A stretch of 60,097 bases of DNA, counting the filler. It is 8 parts of 8 records of this genome, joined end to end, with 100 filler letters (N's around TTAATTAATTAA, not from the genome) between each part and the next. Parts side by side here need not be neighbours in the genome. Positions count along the whole stretch, not along the records: positions 9,260 to 17,092 come from SRR31147125_8899; 7 more parts are not named here. One strand, written 5' to 3'. Shown here in pieces: positions 9,160-19,655 of the stretch. Under the pieces are notes generated by a model. That model was not told the DNA's origin. It saw nothing but the letters and a program-made list of their open reading frames with translations, and did not search any database. Made by a program: the position numbers and the translations under genes. Positions within the stretch are counted from its first letter, which is position 1; each line of letters starts with the position of its first letter.

Positions 9160-9259
9160 NNNNNNNNNNNNNNNNNNNNNNNNNNNNNNNNNNNNNNNNN
9201 NNNTTAATTAATTAANNNNNNNNNNNNNNNNNNNNNNNNNNNNNNNNNNNNNNNNNNNN
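9160..9259. other. Artificial contig linker (N44-TTAATTAATTAA-N44)
   Basis: Six-frame stop cassette flanked by Ns. The same linker occurs at 17093-17192, 22496-22595, 29638-29737, 36861-36960, 45707-45806 and 54819-54918. Confidence 0.98.
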
Positions 9260-10163: not shown

Positions 10164-10178
10164 AACTATATGATATAG

Positions 10179-10217
10179 AAAAAGACTGATATTCAAATTA
10201 AAATATCAGTCTTTTTT
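10179..10217. terminator. Bidirectional intrinsic terminator between ptsI and the ABC exporter
   Basis: AAAAAGACTGATATT...AATATCAGTCTTTTT inverted repeat between convergent genes. Confidence 0.85.
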
Positions 10218-10229
10218 ATTATGATTTAA

Positions 10230-11822
10230 TTAAAATGAAATGACTTGATCGAATAAATGATTTTCCAACTGATGATGTGAAATTAAGATGATAGTTTTAT
10301 TTTTTAATGATTGTAAGTGAGTGATTAGTTTTTCTTCTAATTGAATGTTTAATGCAGATGTGACTTCATCTAAACATATGATTGGTGCATCTTTGAGTAA
10401 GGTTCTTGCGATGGCTAGTCTTTGTATTTGTCCAATAGATAAACCAGAACCTTTTTCATTTAAATGAATATCTAATAGATCTAATCCATGTGATAGTTCA
10501 TCATATAGAGAAACATCTTTTAATGCTTGGATTAAGCGTTGATCATCATGTGTTTTAAATAGATTGAGATTATCTCTAATCGTGCCAGATAGTATCAAAT
10601 TATCTTGTGGGACATATGTGAAATAAGTACGTGTTTGTGATGAGATGTCATAGGTGCTATTTTTAGTCTTTAATACTAATTTTCCATGTGTAATGGGATA
10701 AAAACCTAAGAGTAGTTTCATCAGTGTAGATTTGCCGACACCCGAAGGACCTTTAAATAAAACTGAAGATTGACTTTTGATTGTAAATGATAGGTCATCA
10801 ATAACTTTATGTGTGTCATACTGAAATGAGATATGATTTGCTTCAATCTCAACGAAATCTTCTAATAAAGCCGTTAAGTCTTTTTCTAAAGGCATAGATT
10901 TTAATGTTTCTAATCGATCAATAGATGCCAGTGACTGCATATATTTAGGATACAATAAACTAAGACTACTAAAAGGAGATTGGAGATGTTGAATCAATTG
11001 AATCATGGCAATTAAATAACCTACACTTAAGCCAAATTGTAGTTGATAACCACCAAAGATAAGAGCAAATGCATAACCAAAAGCAAAAAATAAATTCATT
11101 CCACTAGATGTCACAAGTGATAACTTTACTTGTGATATTTTAGCATCATTGACATGTGATTGAAGAGTTGATTGTTTTTCTCTAAATGGTTGTTCTGCTT
11201 GAAATGCTTTAATCACTGATACGTTTTCGATTGATTCTTGCATATAACTTCTTAAATGATCTTTTTTTATTTGTAGGTTTTTATGTCTTGCTTTTATTTT
11301 TGGAGCAATCCATCGACTTAATATAAACAAAATGATCCCAAGTCCTAAAAATATCATAGAAAATGTAGGCTCAATGAGTAATAAAAGTATAAATGCACCC
11401 ATCATGCGCACAACATAAAAACATAATCTAGGAATGAGGAGTATCATTTGATTCGCAACAATTTCAATATCATTTTCTAAATGATTAAGTAATGTACCAC
11501 TATGATATGCAGATAAATCTGACATGTTAGCTTTTAATATATGATGATAATGATAAGCTCTTAAATGTTTAATGCTCGTATTCAAAAACTTTTGTGACAT
11601 ATACTTAAATAATGCTTGTAATAACATATTTAATAAAAGTAATATTGCTAGCATCACAGCAAAAAACACAAAAGATTGCATATTGGCACTCATGGCTTCA
11701 TCAATTAAATCTTTTGAGTAATATGCAAAAAAGAGTGCAAGCGTGCTTGCACATATATTAATCACTGATAGAATGATTATTTGTTTTAAATAGGGTTTAA
11801 TATATTTCAAATATAGTTTCAT
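10230..11822 (-). CDS. ABC exporter, fused permease plus ATPase (no C39 peptidase domain)
   Basis: N-terminal multi-TM domain, GPSGVGKST, LSIGQIQRLAIAR, ICLDEVTSAL. Confidence 0.9.
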   Translation of the reverse strand: MKLYLKYIKPYLKQIIILSVINICASTLALFFAYYSKDLIDEAMSANMQSFVFFAVMLAILLLLNMLLQALFKYMSQKFLNTSIKHLRAYHYHHILKANMSDLSAYHSGTLLNHLENDIEIVANQMILLIPRLCFYVVRMMGAFILLLLIEPTFSMIFLGLGIILFILSRWIAPKIKARHKNLQIKKDHLRSYMQESIENVSVIKAFQAEQPFREKQSTLQSHVNDAKISQVKLSLVTSSGMNLFFAFGYAFALIFGGYQLQFGLSVGYLIAMIQLIQHLQSPFSSLSLLYPKYMQSLASIDRLETLKSMPLEKDLTALLEDFVEIEANHISFQYDTHKVIDDLSFTIKSQSSVLFKGPSGVGKSTLMKLLLGFYPITHGKLVLKTKNSTYDISSQTRTYFTYVPQDNLILSGTIRDNLNLFKTHDDQRLIQALKDVSLYDELSHGLDLLDIHLNEKGSGLSIGQIQRLAIARTLLKDAPIICLDEVTSALNIQLEEKLITHLQSLKNKTIILISHHQLENHLFDQVISF

Positions 11823-11892
11823 CTCATCACCATTTCTATTTTATCATTTAAAATAAATATTTGATAAAGAAATTAAAACATCTAATTTTTAA

Positions 11893-11901
11893 TGATATAA
11901 T
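11893..11901 (+). promoter_or_regulatory. Extended -10 promoter of the kinase-PqqD-peptidase operon
   Basis: TG-A-TATAAT upstream of a GAGGTGA RBS. Confidence 0.55.
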
Positions 11902-11912
11902 GAAAAAAAGAG

Positions 11913-12743
11913 GTGATGACTTTGTTTTTAAAATACGTAAACATTATGGGACTATCCTTAGAGCTACATTATCAATATGAGAAATATTTCAAAAACAACA
12001 TCGAAAAATATGAAATCCCTTTTAAACCAGAACATATAGATTATCAAATCACCGTATCATACACTGATCATATTGATGCAAGCAAGTATAAAGATTTTGA
12101 AGTTTTTTCAAAAACTAAATCTGGTGATGTAAAGTCTGGCATCGCTATCCGTGATCGAAATTATATGATATATATGCTGAAAGATGCGTTTGAAGATGAA
12201 GCAGAAACTGAATACATTTATATGGGTATTGCATTTTTAAAAATTGCATTACATGAAAAAATGTTTCCACTTCATGCATCAACCATTCTTTATAAAAACG
12301 AAGCCATATGTTTTTCAGGACCATCTCAAACTGGTAAATCAACGCATACAAGTTTATGGACGAAACATATAAAAAATGCAGTTAAATTAAACGATGATAA
12401 AACCATGCTCACATTTGAAGATGATCATATTTATGCACATGGGATACCTTTTAGTGGATCAATGAGTATTAATATGAATAAAAAAGCTAATCTTAAAGCC
12501 ATTGTATTTTTGAAACAATCAAAAATCAATGTCATTAAACGTATGAAGCCAGAGGTTGCGACCATAGAACTTGCAAGAAATATTTATCAACCAACAGATG
12601 GACAAGCATGGCAATTCATCTTTACCCAAATAGAAAAGATAATTAACGAAGTACCTATTTATCTTTTACTCTGTGATATTAGTGAAGAAGCAGTCAATAA
12701 AGCATATGATGCGATTTATAAAGGAGAAGTTGATGAGAATTAA
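11913..12743 (+). CDS. HPr-kinase-like P-loop protein of PqqD-associated cassettes
   Basis: PLHASTI...AICFSGPSQTGKSTH...LNDDK...HGIPFSGS, i.e. His, Walker A and DD motifs of the HPrK fold. Start may be TTG 11922. Confidence 0.8.
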   Translation: MMTLFLKYVNIMGLSLELHYQYEKYFKNNIEKYEIPFKPEHIDYQITVSYTDHIDASKYKDFEVFSKTKSGDVKSGIAIRDRNYMIYMLKDAFEDEAETEYIYMGIAFLKIALHEKMFPLHASTILYKNEAICFSGPSQTGKSTHTSLWTKHIKNAVKLNDDKTMLTFEDDHIYAHGIPFSGSMSINMNKKANLKAIVFLKQSKINVIKRMKPEVATIELARNIYQPTDGQAWQFIFTQIEKIINEVPIYLLLCDISEEAVNKAYDAIYKGEVDEN

Positions 12744-12999
12744 AGAAGGATTTGTTGTGAGAAAAATCAATGATTTTTATGCAGTTGTACCGGTTAATAA
12801 AAAAGTATTAGATTTTAGTGGGATGATGACATTAAATGAATCAGGGAAAATGCTATATGATTTATTGCTAACAGATGTCAGCAAACAAACACTCATAGAC
12901 TTTATGTGTAAAACATATGATGTTAGTCAAGAAGTAGCAGAAAAAGATATTGATGCTTTTTTAAATAAATTAATATCACATCAATTGTTGATCAAATAG
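12733..12999 (+). CDS. PqqD-family protein (RiPP recognition element, RRE)
   Basis: AAGGAG RBS, ATG 12733, MRIKEGFVVRKI...LNESGKMLYDLL...YDVSQEVAEKDIDAFLNKL, 88 aa. Confidence 0.9.
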   Translation: MRIKEGFVVRKINDFYAVVPVNKKVLDFSGMMTLNESGKMLYDLLLTDVSKQTLIDFMCKTYDVSQEVAEKDIDAFLNKLISHQLLIK

Positions 13000-13007
13000 G
13001 GGGAGTT

Positions 13008-13411
13008 ATGAAGAAAGTGATTGTATCCAATCATGAGATGTTTGATTTAATTATCAAACAACTCAATGATTCAGGTCTGGTTCATTTTAGTGTAAAAGGT
13101 GATTCAATGCGTCCTTTTTTTCAAAATGATCGTACAATGGTCACAGTTAAAAAGTTTGACACATATGAAAAAGGCGATGTCGTCTTATTTAAATATAACG
13201 ATCAAGTGTTACTTCATCGTATTATTAAAATAAAAGGTGATCGATATATTATTCAAGGTGATGCTGCATATCGAAAAGAATACGCAATGCTTCATGATAT
13301 ATATGGTAAGGTTGTATTGTTTGCACCACCAGTAAAAGATTATGAAAAAAAGCAAAATGGTGGGTTTTCTTTAGACCTTTTAAAAGATTATTAATAAAAT
13401 TTATAAAATAG
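13008..13411 (+). CDS. S24/S26-family serine peptidase (signal-peptidase-like), probable frameshift in the A run near 13346-13351
   Basis: VKGDSMRPFF (catalytic Ser), GDVVLF, LLHRI, IQGD. An alternate-frame tail KAKWWVFFRPFKRLLIKFIK* ends at 13411. Confidence 0.8.
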
Positions 13412-13443
13412 CGCTTACATGTAATGTTTGTGCTAAATTCAAT

Positions 13444-13473
13444 AAAATAACCTTGCGAGAGGTTATTTTTTTT
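13444..13473 (+). terminator. Intrinsic terminator after the peptidase gene
   Basis: AAAATAACCT-TGCGAG-AGGTTATTTT followed by a T run. Confidence 0.75.
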
Positions 13474-13522
13474 GATATTATCAACACATAGGGCAGATTT
13501 ATAGAAAGAGGGATAAGTAAAT

Positions 13523-13651
13523 ATGGAAAAACAAGTAATTAAGCAAGACTATGTCGTGCCTTCAATTGATATTGTTGAATTTCAATTAGAGGATTCTATT
13601 GCAGCATCTGGAGAATCAAGTGGAGCAGCATTCTGGGAAGAATGGGACTAA
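13523..13651 (+). CDS. 42-aa putative RiPP-type precursor peptide MEKQVIKQDYVVPSIDIVEFQLEDSIAASGESSGAAFWEEWD (not in the ORF track)
   Basis: AGAGGG RBS, ATG 13523, TAA 13649-13651. YxxPxI leader motif, adjacent to the PqqD, kinase and peptidase genes. Confidence 0.8.
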   Translation: MEKQVIKQDYVVPSIDIVEFQLEDSIAASGESSGAAFWEEWD

Positions 13652-13655
13652 ACAC

Positions 13656-16163
13656 ATGAAAATGAAAAAGTTAATACTAGGAATATTTTTAAGTTTAGGA
13701 CTGTTCATGGCATCTATTGGATTATTTCCAAATGTATATGCTGCACATGTTGGGAATAACTATGATGTTGAAGTAACCATCGTTTATGGTGATGGACCCA
13801 GTGATTTTGTGAGTGCGAACTTATCAAATAAGGGTTATGGTTCAGCTGTAAGTGTTGATTTTGGGTCTTGGTTAAACACAAATTCATTTGCATACTATAT
13901 TGTAAATGGTGAAGTGATTACGAATCAAGGTGAAATGTTTCGCGTAAAAAGTGATTTAAATATTATTGCTGTCGTGCAACCTGCAGGAGAAAATGTCGCA
14001 GTGTTTATCGATAGTAATGGTAAATATTTAGGTGTTGATTATGTGGTAAATGGTGGTACACCAGTAGCACCAGATATATCAGAGTTATCTAAACCAGGAT
14101 ATTCAGTAGATAGTGAAAATCCATGGTCACCTGCCATATCAACATTATCAGGAAATCAAATATATGAAGTACAATATGCATTAGATGCAGCTGACACATT
14201 TAGTGCATCTGCAACAAATGCAAGTCTATCTAATGAAAATCCAGTATTTAATGAAATTGTCACAGCAACAGCTGTGGGGACATCGGGATATTGGTTAGAC
14301 AATAATGTAAAAATAGCATATGGTTTAACATATGAATTCTCTGCATTAAGTGATCGAGACATAGAATATGTTGAAAGTGCAGAAGCAGAAGAAGCACTAG
14401 TTAGCATACATGATGTTTCAGGTATTAGAGACGGTTATGAATCTTATTTAGGTCAAGTTTATGTACCAGATGGTTATGAACTGATTGAATGGGGATTCTT
14501 ATTTGATAGTGAAGAAGAAGCATTAACACTTGATAATGCTGAAGTAGTTAAACCAAGTTCAGCATTAGCTGGCACCAATGAGTTCTTAAGATCAGTAGAA
14601 TCAGGTTTATATACATCAATTAGAGCATATGCAACAGTTGATAATGGATCTAGTTTAGAAACGATTTATAGTGATGTTAATGTGTTTGTTGCGAGTTCAG
14701 GAGCAAGTGATTTATTTATATCAGAGGTATTGGACTGGAATGGTGGAACTAATAAAGCAATTGAGTTATACAATGGTACAAACTCACCAATTAATCTAAG
14801 TGATTATAGCATTAAAGTAAATGCAAATGATAACACAACATGGACGAATACCACACCAAATCCATTACCTGATATTGATTTGAATGCAGGACAAACTTAT
14901 GTGTTGACAAATGCTAGCGAGTCTTCAATCACAGCATTATCAGATTCTACAACTACTGCATCGTTCAATGGAGATGATGCGATTGGATTATTTAAAAATG
15001 ATGTTCTAATTGATATATTTGGTGTATTTGGAGAAGATCCAGGTTCAGGTTGGGCTATAAACGGTGGTAACACTGCTGATGTATCAATTATCAGAAATGC
15101 ATCTGTGACTGGTCCTTATGTTAATAATGATGCAGATCCGATGTGGGAGCAAAATGAATGGACAGCTACTTCTAACACAGTTGATAATCTAAGTTCTCAT
15201 ACAATGGAATCAGGTTCAACCTCATCAAGTCTAAAATTAATATCTACTATTAAAACTGAAGTGGAATCAGATTTAAATGCACCTAGTGTTACATTAGATA
15301 TCGATAGTGATTATACATTACCAGATACTAATCTTTATGGTTCATCAGTATCTTGGTCAGTATTATCAGGTTCTAGTTACATAGATAATGCAGGTGTCGT
15401 TTCAAGACCAGCATATGGTGTTGGAGATCAAGAGGCAACACTTCAATATACAATTAGTGTTGGTGGAGAAGATGTTGTTGGAACAATTACATTAAATATC
15501 TTAGAAGAAGAGCAAACATTTACAGTATCATTTGATGCAAATGGTGGAGATGCAAATCCTGATCCGCAAGTTGTTGTAGCTGGTGAATTTGCAAGTCAAC
15601 CAACAACACCAACAAATGATGGTTATGTACTTACTGGTTGGTTTGATGCTGCTAGTGGCGGTAATGAATGGGATTTTGCAAATGATCCTGTATCAGGCGA
15701 TATGACGCTTTATGCTCAATGGAACCAAGCTTCAGAAGATAAAGAAGCAACTCTTACATATGGTACAAACAAATATACAAATTCCGCATCTGCTACAATT
15801 GATGATACAGTTGATTTTGCAATATCGAGTGGTGGAATTCTAAGTGCATCTTCAATAACTTTCTCAAAAGCATACTGGGTATATTCGGCTACTGATGGTG
15901 GTAACACAATGCGTTTAGGAAGTTCTAGCACAGATGGGTCAATTACATATAATTTTAACGCATCGGTTACCGTAACAAGTGTTATTGTTACAGCGTTGGA
16001 ATATGATAGTGGAGCGTCACTAACAATTGGTACGACTACTCTAAGTTTAACTGATACAGCTGCAGATTACACTTTTGATATTGTTGATGGTTCAAGCTTT
16101 ACAATTGAAGGCAATGATAGAGTTCAAATAGTTAGCGTAACAGTTATATATTTGGGGGAGTAA
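13656..16163 (+). CDS. Large secreted/surface protein with lamin-tail domain and InlB B-repeat-like domain; probably N-terminal part of an extracellular nuclease
   Basis: Signal peptide MKMKKLILGIF...VYA, LTD motif DLFISEV...NKAIELYNGT...INLSDY, B-repeat FTVSFDANGG...GWF...TLYAQW. Confidence 0.8.
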   Translation: MKMKKLILGIFLSLGLFMASIGLFPNVYAAHVGNNYDVEVTIVYGDGPSDFVSANLSNKGYGSAVSVDFGSWLNTNSFAYYIVNGEVITNQGEMFRVKSDLNIIAVVQPAGENVAVFIDSNGKYLGVDYVVNGGTPVAPDISELSKPGYSVDSENPWSPAISTLSGNQIYEVQYALDAADTFSASATNASLSNENPVFNEIVTATAVGTSGYWLDNNVKIAYGLTYEFSALSDRDIEYVESAEAEEALVSIHDVSGIRDGYESYLGQVYVPDGYELIEWGFLFDSEEEALTLDNAEVVKPSSALAGTNEFLRSVESGLYTSIRAYATVDNGSSLETIYSDVNVFVASSGASDLFISEVLDWNGGTNKAIELYNGTNSPINLSDYSIKVNANDNTTWTNTTPNPLPDIDLNAGQTYVLTNASESSITALSDSTTTASFNGDDAIGLFKNDVLIDIFGVFGEDPGSGWAINGGNTADVSIIRNASVTGPYVNNDADPMWEQNEWTATSNTVDNLSSHTMESGSTSSSLKLISTIKTEVESDLNAPSVTLDIDSDYTLPDTNLYGSSVSWSVLSGSSYIDNAGVVSRPAYGVGDQEATLQYTISVGGEDVVGTITLNILEEEQTFTVSFDANGGDANPDPQVVVAGEFASQPTTPTNDGYVLTGWFDAASGGNEWDFANDPVSGDMTLYAQWNQASEDKEATLTYGTNKYTNSASATIDDTVDFAISSGGILSASSITFSKAYWVYSATDGGNTMRLGSSSTDGSITYNFNASVTVTSVIVTALEYDSGASLTIGTTTLSLTDTAADYTFDIVDGSSFTIEGNDRVQIVSVTVIYLGE

Positions 16164-17092
16164 CGACCCCTACTGAAGATACTACTTCACCTATACTTTC
16201 AATTACACCTTCGGAAACGGAGGTGTATGTTTCCGTAGGGGAATCATGGTCATTGCCGAGTGTGTCGGCAACTGATGACGTCGATGGTGACATCTCAGAG
16301 TTTGTAACTCTTGATGATGATAATTACGACTTAAACACAACAGGAACATATACACTCATTTGGAGTGTATCAGATACTGCAGGGAATGCTGCAACTTTAT
16401 CATTAACACTAAATGTGTATGACAATAATGGTGGAAATAATGATACTTTTTATTCTGAAGATTCATATTATAGTTCATTAAATGGACTATCAGGAACTAG
16501 TTTAGAAGATGCATTATATACGCTTATTAATAATACAGGCACTTATACAACAACGACGTACGGAGAAGCTAGAGATTATTTAGCAATATCCGATGTGTTA
16601 ACTACAGATAATACTAAACTTGATATGATTTATTCAACCACTTTATCTTCTGGAACATACGCTACTGCTTCATGGGATAGTGGAGCAACTTGGAATAGAG
16701 AACATGTATGGGCTAAATCACTGCTAGGCAGTGGTTATACTGTTGATAATGGTGATAGAGGTATTGCTGCTGATCTTCATAACTTAAGAGCAGCAGATAC
16801 TGGTATAAATTCATCACGTGGTAATAAATTATTTTCCGCATCAACCTCACTTCTTGGCACGTATGGCGATGATGGTAGTGGTAGATGGTATCCAGGAGAT
16901 AGTTATATTGGAGATGTCGCAAGAATCATTTTCTATATGGATATCAGATGGGGAAGTGAAACGTCGATATCGAGTATTGGTACGCTTCAAACATTTATAT
17001 CTTGGGCGTCAACTGATACTGTCGATACATTTGAAGAAAATAGAAATGATGTGATATACTCATATCAAGGAAATAGAAATCCATTTATTGAT
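16160..17092 (+). CDS. Ig-like (DUF5011-type) domain plus endonuclease I domain; likely continuous with the upstream ORF across a G-run frameshift; 3' truncated
   Basis: ATDDVDGD...GTYTL..SVSDTAGN, WNREHVWAKS, DLHNLR, NSSRGN, GDVARIIFYM, QGNRNPFID. Confidence 0.85.
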
Positions 17093-17192
17093 NNNNNNNN
17101 NNNNNNNNNNNNNNNNNNNNNNNNNNNNNNNNNNNNTTAATTAATTAANNNNNNNNNNNNNNNNNNNNNNNNNNNNNNNNNNNNNNNNNNNN

Positions 17193-19655
17193 TTTATCTA
17201 TATCAGCTTGTGACATTTGACCACCGCTTGAGGCGTCTACTGGAGCTGCTGCCACAGCTTCCGTCGCTCCAGCTAAAGTTTCTTCTCCAATGTTTAAGCT
17301 TTCGTCCTCTACATCAACATCAGAATCTTCAGCAGGCTCATCTTCAAGCTCATCAGCGATTTCCGCTAACATCTCATCACTAAGGTTTAAGCCACTAGCG
17401 ATTTCCTCATCCGAAATCTCTTCTGCTTCATCATCTAAATCATCGGCAATTCCAGAAAGCATTTCATCACTTAAATCAAGTCCGCCAGCTCCAAGTTCTT
17501 CGGAAGCTAATTCTTCTTCTAATTCCTCCACAGGAATTTCCTCTATTGAGTTTTCTGGTGAATCAAAAGATGATTCCTCTTCTAGTGATTCTTCAAATTC
17601 TTCCTCTTCAATAATTTCTTCTGAACTGTCATCAAAACTCTCTTCAACCACAGCACTCTCGTCCAACAGATCCTCCATAACATCTTCCATCATATCTTCA
17701 TCCATTGTATCAACAAACTCAGAAGGTAAGTCATCTTGGATATCTGTCATTACTTCCTCTTCAACTTTCTCCTCTACTTTTTCTTCACTTACAACTGCTG
17801 ATTTATATGTTTGGAATACTACTCTATATTTCTCATTGATCATATTATCCCCAGAAGTAATAATCCTAGGCATATCATCTATACCCTCTAAGAACAATTT
17901 CGAATTCCTATAAGTTACTGAAAATGTATCATCAAACGGTTCTAGAGAAACGTCTAATCCTTCATTTGCTAAATATACCGTTTGAAGCTGTTTTAACATT
18001 ACATATTTAGATGACAAAAAGTTATGGAACGAGTCTTCAGCAATACATTCTGGATTACTTTTATCCTCAAAAGGTTCCAAAGAGAACATCTGGTCACCCT
18101 TATCTGCTATTCTATATGTAAAAGCATGTCCTAGGTTTAATTCATATATTTTATCATTAAACAAATTCACTTCTTTAAATGATTTTCTTCCATCACCATT
18201 AATAAATGACATATTATAAATTAAATCTGAATTTATATCGTTTTCATTCTCTTGTTTAGAACCATTCTGTATGTTTCCATTCTCTGTTTGTACTAATACA
18301 TGTTTTCCCATTGCAACATATTGAGAGTTAATTCTTATATCATTAAGCCTGCTACGTCCGATATTTATCTCTTTTTTTCTAAATATTACAAATGTTTGTT
18401 TTGTTTCAATGTTTTCTATTTCAAGCTTAAATTCACCTTTAATCTCATATGAGTTTTGAAGAGATTCATGTTTATTTTGTAAAAGTTTTTTCAATGCTTC
18501 TGCAAAACTTACTTCCAGTGTGTTACATCTCTTAATATGTGCTTCAAGTTGAAACAGTTTTTCTCCAACAGAGGCAGTTTCAAGCGTGTCACACACCTCA
18601 TTTAAGAACGCTATTACATCCTCTTCTGTATGTTCATTGATAAGTCTCTCTATTAAATATACTTTATCAACATACTCCCTATTAGGTAAAACATCATCAA
18701 ATAAAAAGTTAAACTGTGCTTCAGCATAAACTTCATTATATTTTGCAAAACTTTTATTTAATTTAGACATAATTCCTTTTATTGCTTCATTTTTTGAATC
18801 AGAATGAAGAAGACTAATATATTTTTCCCCAAACTTCTTTACTTGCTCATAATCAGTATATTCAATGTCATTCTCTAAAAATGATATTATTAAATTTGCT
18901 GTAAAAAATTGATTTATTATACTTGCATATTCATTAAAAGCCTTTGTATTAAAATAAGATATATACTTAAGTGTTGTTTTAATATCTTTCTTGCTAGCTT
19001 TTTTTAACTTTTCTTCATTTAAAACCCACTCTTCAGCGGAATTAACACTCTGTCTGAATTTACTTCTTATCTCAGTATCTAAAGCTCTTACTAATTTACT
19101 AGCAGATGAGAAATTCTTTTTATACTCACTTCTAGCTTGATTAACTGAGGAAAAGTTTATGTCCATAAATTTCTTATAAGAATCATAAGCTTTTTCATTG
19201 TCTTTCAATTTTATTCTATAAGTTGAGGCGTGATTATGTCTTATTGCTTCTAATGCTTCTATCCCTTGCTCCAATAAAAATATTTCATTTTTTTCAAATG
19301 TTTCCTTTAATTCAAGGTTATTTTTTACATATTCTTCAAGAACTTTCTTATATTTCTCTTTTTGGATATCAATTCCTTTTCTTGCTCTTTTATCTTTCTT
19401 TTTACTTCTATAATAAGCAAAATAATAGTAACCCAAAGCTTCCTGTATTCCCTTTATCTTTTTGACAAAAGGACTGCTAGCAGTAAGCTTGTTTATTATT
19501 TTATCACCCTTTTTTATATTTTTAAGGACTGTTTCTGAAGAAATCAATTCAAGGGACTTCATAAGCCAGTTTTTACTATTTTGTTCATTATTATTCAAAT
19601 CCTCAGCTTTTTTTCGTATTTCTACTAAGGAGTGTATTACCTTTTCCTCTTCCAT
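17193..19655 (-). CDS. FHA-domain protein with helical N-terminus and long acidic disordered tail (3' truncated)
   Basis: EINIGRSRLNDIRINSQYVAMGKH FHA-like motif and an E/D-rich C-terminal ~190 aa. Confidence 0.6.

Follow-up and report, generated by a model that had tools for sequence, protein, structure and literature searches.

What does a peptide-maturation locus make when it encodes a kinase-like enzyme, a leader-binding protein, a peptidase and an exporter, and neither the B2 protease nor the cyclase of a lasso-peptide cluster? The question was raised by a group of genes at positions 10230–13651 of the 60-kb stretch of DNA analyzed here (60,097 nucleotides, hereafter the window). The window consists of eight contigs of 5.2–9.2 kb each (GC content 0.315–0.405) joined through spacers of N44, 12 nucleotides (nt) and N44, so that gene neighborhoods are not readable across 9160–9259, 17093–17192 and the other joins. 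The genes of interest lie on one contig (9260–17092; 7,833 bp, GC 0.325), and near-identical DNA of the locus was also found on contigs of runs from three further studies. A preliminary description had named a P-loop protein, a stand-alone PqqD-type recognition element (RRE) for peptides that are made by the ribosome and modified after translation (RiPPs), an S24/S26 peptidase, an ABC exporter and a short peptide open reading frame (ORF), and profile searches of the contig proteins showed all five genes to be present at the positions given for them. The answer that we regard as probable is that the locus represents a minimal form, without radical SAM, of a very large uncharacterized family of RRE-dependent peptide-maturation cassettes built around an ScmC-family enzyme, following the course of maturation proposed below.

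In the window, the genes for the ScmC-like protein (11913–12743, plus strand, 276 amino acids (aa)), the PqqD-type protein (12733–12999, plus strand, 88 aa) and the S24/S26 peptidase (13008–13411, plus strand) form a tightly packed trio that is divergent from the ABC gene (10230–11822, minus strand, 530 aa). A locus search with a single protein found no relative, whereas an alignment-based query did, and the resulting pattern scan of one genome per species confirmed at least 598 loci; the 80 best were retained for analysis. These were nearly all from Clostridia, with two from Acholeplasmatales, and their commonest gene order was ScmC-like, PqqD, S24, ABC. By profile counts, PqqD was found in 59 of the 80 loci (39 of the 55 loci with enough flank) and S24 in 46 (28/55); an orthologous ABC gene (E<1e-50) was found in 19 (14/55) and an NTP_transf_5 nucleotidyltransferase in 12 (10/55), and no other family occurred in more than 14 of the 80. 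A search for fusions among the 150 best ScmC-family representatives revealed proteins joining ScmC to PqqD (P0258), ScmC to the S24 peptidase (P0255) and a radical SAM enzyme to ScmC (P0165), the last fusion being present also at an Acholeplasmatales locus (L106:6879–8762, 627 aa). Such fusions are strong evidence that enzyme, RRE and peptidase work together. The earlier proposal of an RRE-type maturation and export cassette that dispenses with lasso B2 and cyclase is upheld by the wide recurrence of the four-gene order and by these fusions.

At the L106 locus, a second, unfused set of radical SAM, ScmC and PqqD genes was seen approximately 5 kb downstream of the fusion gene. The recurrent additional neighbors in the 80 loci were the capsule genes Wzz/CpsC, CpsD and CpsB, SLH-domain wall proteins (13 loci), VanZ and MatE. 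In clostridial loci (L010, L024, L058, L069, L070 and others) an SLH-domain wall protein, Wzz, CpsD, CpsB and VanZ often followed the ScmC-like gene, so that cell-envelope loci repeatedly harbor the cassette in a second phylum too.

The precursor family was gathered with our own iterated profiles on the fetched loci, after a clustering of the small ORFs around the 80 loci had singled out peptides with the same leader as the short ORF of the window. The short ORF of the window (13523–13651, plus strand, 42 aa) matched the profile of related peptides with an E value of 1e-16, and M1, Y10, P13, F20, I26, A27 and S29 were invariant in all 19 aligned peptides, which supports its description as a precursor with a YxxP leader. 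The leader is made up of Y10-x-x-P13, F20 and I26-A27-x-S29 and is followed by the putative core GESSGAAFWEEWD. The Y-x-x-P segment resembles the leader element bound by lasso RREs, and the invariant Ala (−3) and Ser (−1) that precede the variable part agree with the small-x-small rule known for S26 peptidases. A word-index homologue search gave two close homologues (90% and 84% identity); in these and in strain variants from other metagenomes the changes fell at the x positions of YxxP and as D16E. Cores are rich in Asp and Glu, and an acidic pair close to the C-terminus is conserved; clostridial cores share this acidity and have Trp, Tyr or Phe towards the end. The C-terminal residue of the window peptide is Asp, and only one of the 19 aligned peptides ends in Ser. 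The leader was recovered in about 18 of the 80 mostly clostridial loci, in most cases immediately upstream of ScmC; of the expectation that homologous cassettes would share conserved YxxP short ORFs, the recurrence of the family was borne out, its presence throughout the cassettes was not. The long ORFs in the 80 loci were also examined for the leader motif in fused form, and none contained it.

Two observations concern related small ORFs. At 13608–13651, single contigs in runs X2, X3 and X5 diverge after the leader and encode a different core (...DTKGAAFF D...), which suggests that related strains have a second precursor allele, or a paralogue, sharing this leader. At L031:7617–7763, a small ORF ending 4 nt before the ScmC-like gene encodes a lipoprotein-like signal peptide and an acidic Trp-rich tail (..GAEWDENWTNNH); the tail resembles the window core and the N-terminal part differs.

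The protein at 11913–12743, previously labeled HPr-kinase-like, gave no match to PF07475 (Hpr_kinase_C) at E 0.1 or better, and its sole NCBIfam match was a weak one to TIGR04249, the ScmC equivalog. PF27840 (ScmC) is precomputed on P0001, a protein 99% identical to it, and on most of the listed homologues, and the nearest protein-atlas clusters are named ScmC, with PF27840 on 53% and 39% of their members; through these homologues the protein is provisionally assigned to the Pfam ScmC family. The AlphaFold model (35-sequence alignment; predicted local distance difference test (pLDDT) 94.1) showed a two-domain fold of PEPCK/HprK type. Its best PDB matches were to ATP-PEPCK over both domains (template-modeling (TM) score 0.56–0.60, E ~1e-9), whereas HprK/P matched the C-terminal P-loop domain only (TM 0.31–0.34), so that the protein is PEPCK-like as a whole and, contrary to the earlier label, not a member of the HPr-kinase family. 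Over the 35 homologues H121, G141-K142-S143-T144-H145 (Walker A), N160 and D162 were invariant, and the motifs H-x-S, G-x-G-K-S-T and N-D-D, invariant or nearly so, align with the PEPCK kinase motifs, which makes an ATP-dependent phosphotransfer activity likely. In an hhalign comparison with a lasso-cluster kinase (L126:6512–7414), which itself matches PF07475 at 7.9e-10, the probability was 98.2% (E 2.7e-14), and on this profile comparison the ScmC-like protein is a distant but true homologue of the lasso-cluster kinases. Counted as 50%-identity cluster representatives, the family comprised 20,392 members at E 1e-3 or better, 9,747 at 1e-10 or better and 3,618 at 1e-30 or better.

The PqqD-type protein matched PF05402 well above the cut-off (E 5.1e-12, 46.4 bits against 23.4). 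Its ORF is open from a GTG at 12673, and the ATG at 12733, which overlaps the ScmC stop codon, is the likely start, giving 88 aa as in the homologues. The peptidase matched PF00717 (E 2.4e-10, 40.6 bits; cut-off 23.3) and has GDSMRP as its Ser motif and LHR as its His motif, in keeping with the signal-peptidase-like protease described before; G-x-S-M-x-P and V-L-H-R were at least 80% conserved among 55 homologues. No transmembrane-like segment was found in any of these 55, so that the peptidase is expected to be cytoplasmic, as would be required of a leader peptidase. A basic C-terminal helix ends all of the homologues except the ORF of the window as assembled, which stops at 13394. The exporter, confirmed as divergent, matched both ABC_membrane (1.4e-29) and ABC_tran (3.9e-26), with a six-helix membrane domain and an ATPase, and showed no C39 peptidase domain in the profile search. 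In Clostridia its orthologues come after the peptidase gene; in the Acholeplasmatales loci L107, L116 and L120 they are divergent.

Acholeplasmatales offered a comparison of gene content. An ScmC-like gene was present in 44 of 158 species genomes of this order (27–40% identity), and the ScmC-PqqD-S24 trio in 16 of the 22 loci examined. Acholeplasma equirhinis also has an annotated homologue. Just upstream of the ScmC gene, 14 of the 16 trio loci encode a 335-aa radical SAM enzyme, and precursor peptides were found in 13 of the 16. All 18 peptides from 12 radical-SAM loci have one Cys in a conserved core (e.g. GDFGSATLCGEEIY), whereas the radical-SAM-less loci with a peptide (the window and L116) have no Cys in the core and carry an ABC gene; Cys in the core co-varies with the radical SAM gene. 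None of the eight contigs of the window carries a radical SAM or NTP_transf_5 homologue, and with both of these missing, a Cys-free core and an exporter present, the window is a minimal form.

Among the closest named systems is the SynChlorMet cassette (ScmC, ScmD, ScmE, ScmF), known solely from TIGRFAM/NCBIfam and Pfam models. The two are alike in having an ScmC-family enzyme beside a PqqD-type protein and, in the Acholeplasmatales relatives, a radical SAM partner, and unlike in that the window contig lacks the radical SAM/SPASM genes ScmE and ScmF. The window also gave no NCBIfam match to the ScmD model at E 0.1 or better. To our knowledge, the description of the SynChlorMet cassette names no peptidase, exporter or surface-protein partner. 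In the literature searched, which left the supplementary cluster tables of lasso-mining papers outside its scope, no paper was found on an ScmC/PqqD/S24 cassette, on 'SynChlorMet', on RRE-Finder with HPr kinase, or on RiPPs with radical SAM, HPr kinase and nucleotidyltransferase. The uses of 'ScmC' among the matches listed had unrelated meanings, PqqD with HPr kinase, signal peptidase and leader peptide returned lasso-peptide papers only, and RRE with S24, ABC and Clostridia returned nothing relevant. The cassette, claimed before as undescribed, can be called so as far as this literature goes; its enzyme family cannot, since it already has Pfam and TIGRFAM models.

The peptide gene is followed after only 4 nt from its stop codon by a gene (13656–16163, plus strand) for an 835-aa secreted or surface protein with a signal peptide, an N-terminal region and LTD, aBig_2 and Flg_new domains. 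The N-terminal region (approximately aa 20–345, nt 13656–14690) is family-specific, all-beta and without a match to any Pfam family; it was modeled as a string of small beta domains (pLDDT 80.2). Its likeness to PDB entries was uninformative, the best being YwfG (E 1e-4, TM 0.16). A signal-peptide protein of 538–1170 aa lies directly 3' of all 20 peptide genes, the window included, and in the 19 proteins from outside the window a match to residues ~20–360 of the window's own was found every time, with E values no higher than 9e-21. This surface-protein gene does not bound the cassette; it is a conserved partner of the precursor gene and part of the unit.

This pairing was further examined from the side of the surface proteins. 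Copies of the N-terminal region lie at the cassette locus in 3/3 cases in G033, 1/1 in G020, 4/5 in G049, 3/4 in G036 and 3/6 in G002, and among 17 further genes situated away from cassettes a family peptide gene abuts the start in 12 and none does in 5. Altogether, 31 of 31 related Acholeplasmatales peptide genes, as well as that of the window, stand directly upstream of a surface protein with this region. Across the 158 Acholeplasmatales genomes, both genes were found in 32, the ScmC-like gene only in 12, the N-terminal region only in 12 and neither in 102 (odds ratio 22.7, Fisher p 4e-14, uncorrected for shared ancestry and with many genomes incomplete). The cores are conserved across species, unlike those of typical antibiotic RiPPs, and this conservation, together with the pairing of precursor and surface gene, suggests that the role is a physiological one at the surface of the cell and not one of antibiosis.

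From these elements we infer a course of leader binding, core modification, cleavage after Ser29 and export. The 42-aa precursor would be made together with the downstream surface protein, and its leader would be bound by PqqD via the YxxP...F strand. PqqD would then recruit the ScmC-like enzyme to modify the acidic aromatic core with ATP, O-phosphorylation of a core Ser being the likeliest reaction. The soluble Ser/His S26-like peptidase would cut after the invariant I-A-x-S29, with its small residues at −3 and −1, and the divergent ABC transporter would export the 13-residue product. The association with the co-encoded surface-protein family is itself observed, and the product would probably act with that family and not as a free antibiotic.

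The first of these interactions was modeled as a complex of PqqD and peptide, in a prediction for which our own alignments were not used. The median score over three runs was 0.44, against 0.01 for the best of three controls, which gives weak support; the runs agreed in at least 89% of contacts, with a partner pLDDT of at least 54. In the calibration of the tool, the mark was reached by 51 of 78 solved complexes and by 2 of 108 mismatched pairs, and scores of 0.60 or lower included 5 of the 78 solved complexes and all 4 of the passing mismatches (of 180). Because RRE-leader complexes have already been solved, the pass may reflect likeness only.

Several observations weigh against the course proposed. 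At the level of the complex score, a pass is false more often than true, except for guesses that were likely beforehand. The ScmC-like gene stands without a nearby PqqD gene in 16 of the 55 well-flanked loci, so that the link between ScmC and RRE is frequent and not obligatory, and a recognizable precursor occurs in only about 18 of 80. NTP_transf_5 is present in all 16 trio loci of Acholeplasmatales and absent from the window. The P-loop protein had no family match in the local Pfam copy, which is without the PF27840 model, and its TIGR04249 score of 24.4 bits (E 1.6e-5) is far below the membership cut-off of 125. In this assembly the S24 gene is frameshifted, the A-run from 13344 being one A short. 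Phosphorylation of a core Ser would be the default by homology with the lasso kinases, as an analogy. Known lasso-type kinases require a C-terminal Ser (PMC8498205), and the window peptide ends in Asp.

With the C-terminal Ser on which lasso kinases act absent here, a different ATP-dependent chemistry is a serious rival, if in our judgment an unlikely one. The cassette would be the same, and the PEPCK-fold enzyme would activate a carboxylate or use ATP for cyclization or ligation of the core, for example by linking an amine to the C-terminus or to the side chain of a Glu/Asp, leaving no stable phosphopeptide. The ScmC-like protein as a whole is nearer to PEPCK than to a protein Ser kinase, and PEPCK transfers phosphate to an enolate oxygen. 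The cores are Asp/Glu-rich with the acidic pair conserved near the C-terminus, a C-terminal Ser is not conserved (1/19), and on our reading of the aligned cores no hydroxyl residue keeps a fixed position. To set against this, we know of no precedent for acyl-phosphate chemistry on peptides in a PEPCK/HprK-type fold. The only characterized homologues are lasso kinases that O-phosphorylate Ser (PMC8498205).

The frameshift and the missing genes would also be explained if the locus were the decaying remnant of a fuller radical SAM and nucleotidyltransferase cassette, yielding no product; we consider this improbable. The S24 ORF is frameshifted in the window, and the eight contigs lack the radical SAM gene carried by 14 of 16 relatives and the NTP_transf_5 gene carried by 16 of 16. 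However, contigs of three other runs, from three studies, have one extra A after 13344 that restores the frame, and the shifted frame at 13346–13408 (stop 13409–13411) encodes the conserved basic C-terminal helix, so that the shift is either an assembly error or a lesion of a single strain. An arrangement that has the ABC gene but no radical SAM is also seen in L116 and L120, and in Clostridia it is the usual one. The peptide and enzyme genes are otherwise intact, with catalytic motifs kept, and the close peptide homologues vary only at tolerant positions.

The close coupling to the surface-protein gene allows another reading, to which we give very little weight, in which the small ORF is a regulatory upstream ORF of that gene and the S24/S26 enzyme a SipW-like signal peptidase for the surface proteins. 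The spacing of 4 nt and the universal pairing in Acholeplasmatales would suit it, and the best NCBIfam match of the peptidase is TIGR02228, the archaeal/SipW-type signal peptidase model (38.5 bits, below the cut-off of 51.85). With SipW-type (ER/archaeal-type) signal peptidase I the enzyme shares the G-x-S-M-x-P Ser motif, the L-H-R His, which presumably stands in place of the bacterial Lys, and small residues at −3/−1 of the putative cleavage site. It differs in its score under the TIGR02228 cut-off and in its basic C-terminal helix. None of the 55 peptidases has a membrane anchor or signal peptide, which would place the active site in the cytoplasm, and in P0255 the peptidase is fused to ScmC. 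The peptide, moreover, is conserved at the amino-acid level, and in Clostridia members of its leader family as a rule immediately precede the ScmC gene, with that surface protein absent.

Lasso clusters of the paeninodin/pseudomycoidin type (phosphorylated or phosphoglycosylated; Firmicutes) resemble the locus in their stand-alone PqqD RRE, YxxP leader, ABC exporter and kinase homologue of HprK/PEPCK fold, and share the NTP_transf_5 family with relatives of the window. They differ in that the window has no B2 or cyclase, a predicted soluble Ser/His S24/S26 leader peptidase, a kinase of the ScmC family without PF07475, a peptide without a terminal Ser and a peptide gene coupled to a surface-protein gene, and in that its relatives add a radical SAM enzyme. 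The B2 family (PF13471) was absent from the contig proteins and from four of five cassette-bearing genomes searched, including both Acholeplasmatales; the one match belongs to a different cluster, which has a PqqD, an Hpr_kinase_C kinase, a nucleotidyltransferase and an ABC gene of its own. An asparagine-synthetase-like cyclase (PF00733) was found neither on the contig nor in G001, G002 gave a 21-bit match only, and the matches in the other related genomes were indistinguishable from housekeeping asnB. The absence of both enzymes, as first described, is consistent with these searches. In G003, a lasso-like cluster (L126:3546–13957) comprises ABC, PqqD, Hpr_kinase_C kinase, B2, NTP_transf_5 and several glycosyltransferase genes, with no asparagine-synthetase-like cyclase evident among the ORFs scanned. 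That the locus belongs to a true lasso-peptide system with B2 and cyclase encoded elsewhere in the genome is the least credible reading, for although the YxxP leader, a Thr at the putative −2 position in most relatives, the kinase homology and the best NCBIfam matches of PqqD (the lasso chaperone models NF033536 and NF033530) recall such systems, those two matches, at 29.3 and 26.7 bits, fall below their cut-offs of 80 and 70, PF13471 is missing from four of the five cassette-bearing genomes searched, no B2 or cyclase family is among the recurrent neighbors of the 80 loci, and P0255 shows a dedicated peptidase fused to ScmC.

The rest of the contig bears on how much of the locus is seen. A ptsI gene at its start is a C-terminal fragment truncated by the contig edge (PEP-utilizers_C match, profile positions 12–288 of 293), and the endonuclease I gene (16223–17092), which encodes an N-terminal surface Ig-like domain, is truncated by the contig end. 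The cassette had been held complete because ptsI and a nuclease gene bound it; on a 7.8-kb contig whose two edges both cut genes, that argument is untenable. A terminator-like hairpin with a 16-bp stem (10178–10217) lies between the convergent ptsI fragment and ABC gene, at the left end of the cassette. The best sigma-70-like match of the contig, TTAAAA-17-TATAAT with a TG (11873–11901, plus strand; a consensus match only), lies directly upstream of the P-loop gene. A second promoter-like site, TTGCGA-17-TATTAT with a TG, precedes the peptide gene and is overlapped by a weak hairpin (13449–13481, plus strand; 5-bp stem, then a T-run) that was read by eye and falls below the scanner threshold. 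The endonuclease I gene and the lamin-tail-domain surface protein upstream of it may, as a pair, serve extracellular DNA binding and degradation. On the next contig, an 836-aa ORF (17145–19655) has a C-terminal region that is long, acidic and of low complexity, and a Ser-rich ORF lies antisense to it.

The ScmC family, with 3,618 representatives at E 1e-30 or better, has no characterized member, and no paper on it was found in the literature searched. As the simplest form, with one enzyme, an RRE, a peptidase, an exporter and a peptide, the window is a good system in which to study how a PEPCK-fold enzyme acts on peptides, and through this cassette a soluble enzyme of the S26 type would be established in the role of leader peptidase. 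A more specific proposal, which we advance with considerable doubt, is that the matured peptide is a dedicated partner of the surface protein (a ligand, cofactor, anchor or glycan primer) and not a free antibiotic or pheromone, that each surface gene has its translationally coupled precursor, and that one cassette per genome, be it with a radical SAM gene or not, serves all copies. If true, this would make the product a modified ribosomal peptide with the task of equipping an adhesin-like protein, and such a role at the surface would fit the recurrent place of the cassette beside capsule and S-layer genes in Clostridia.

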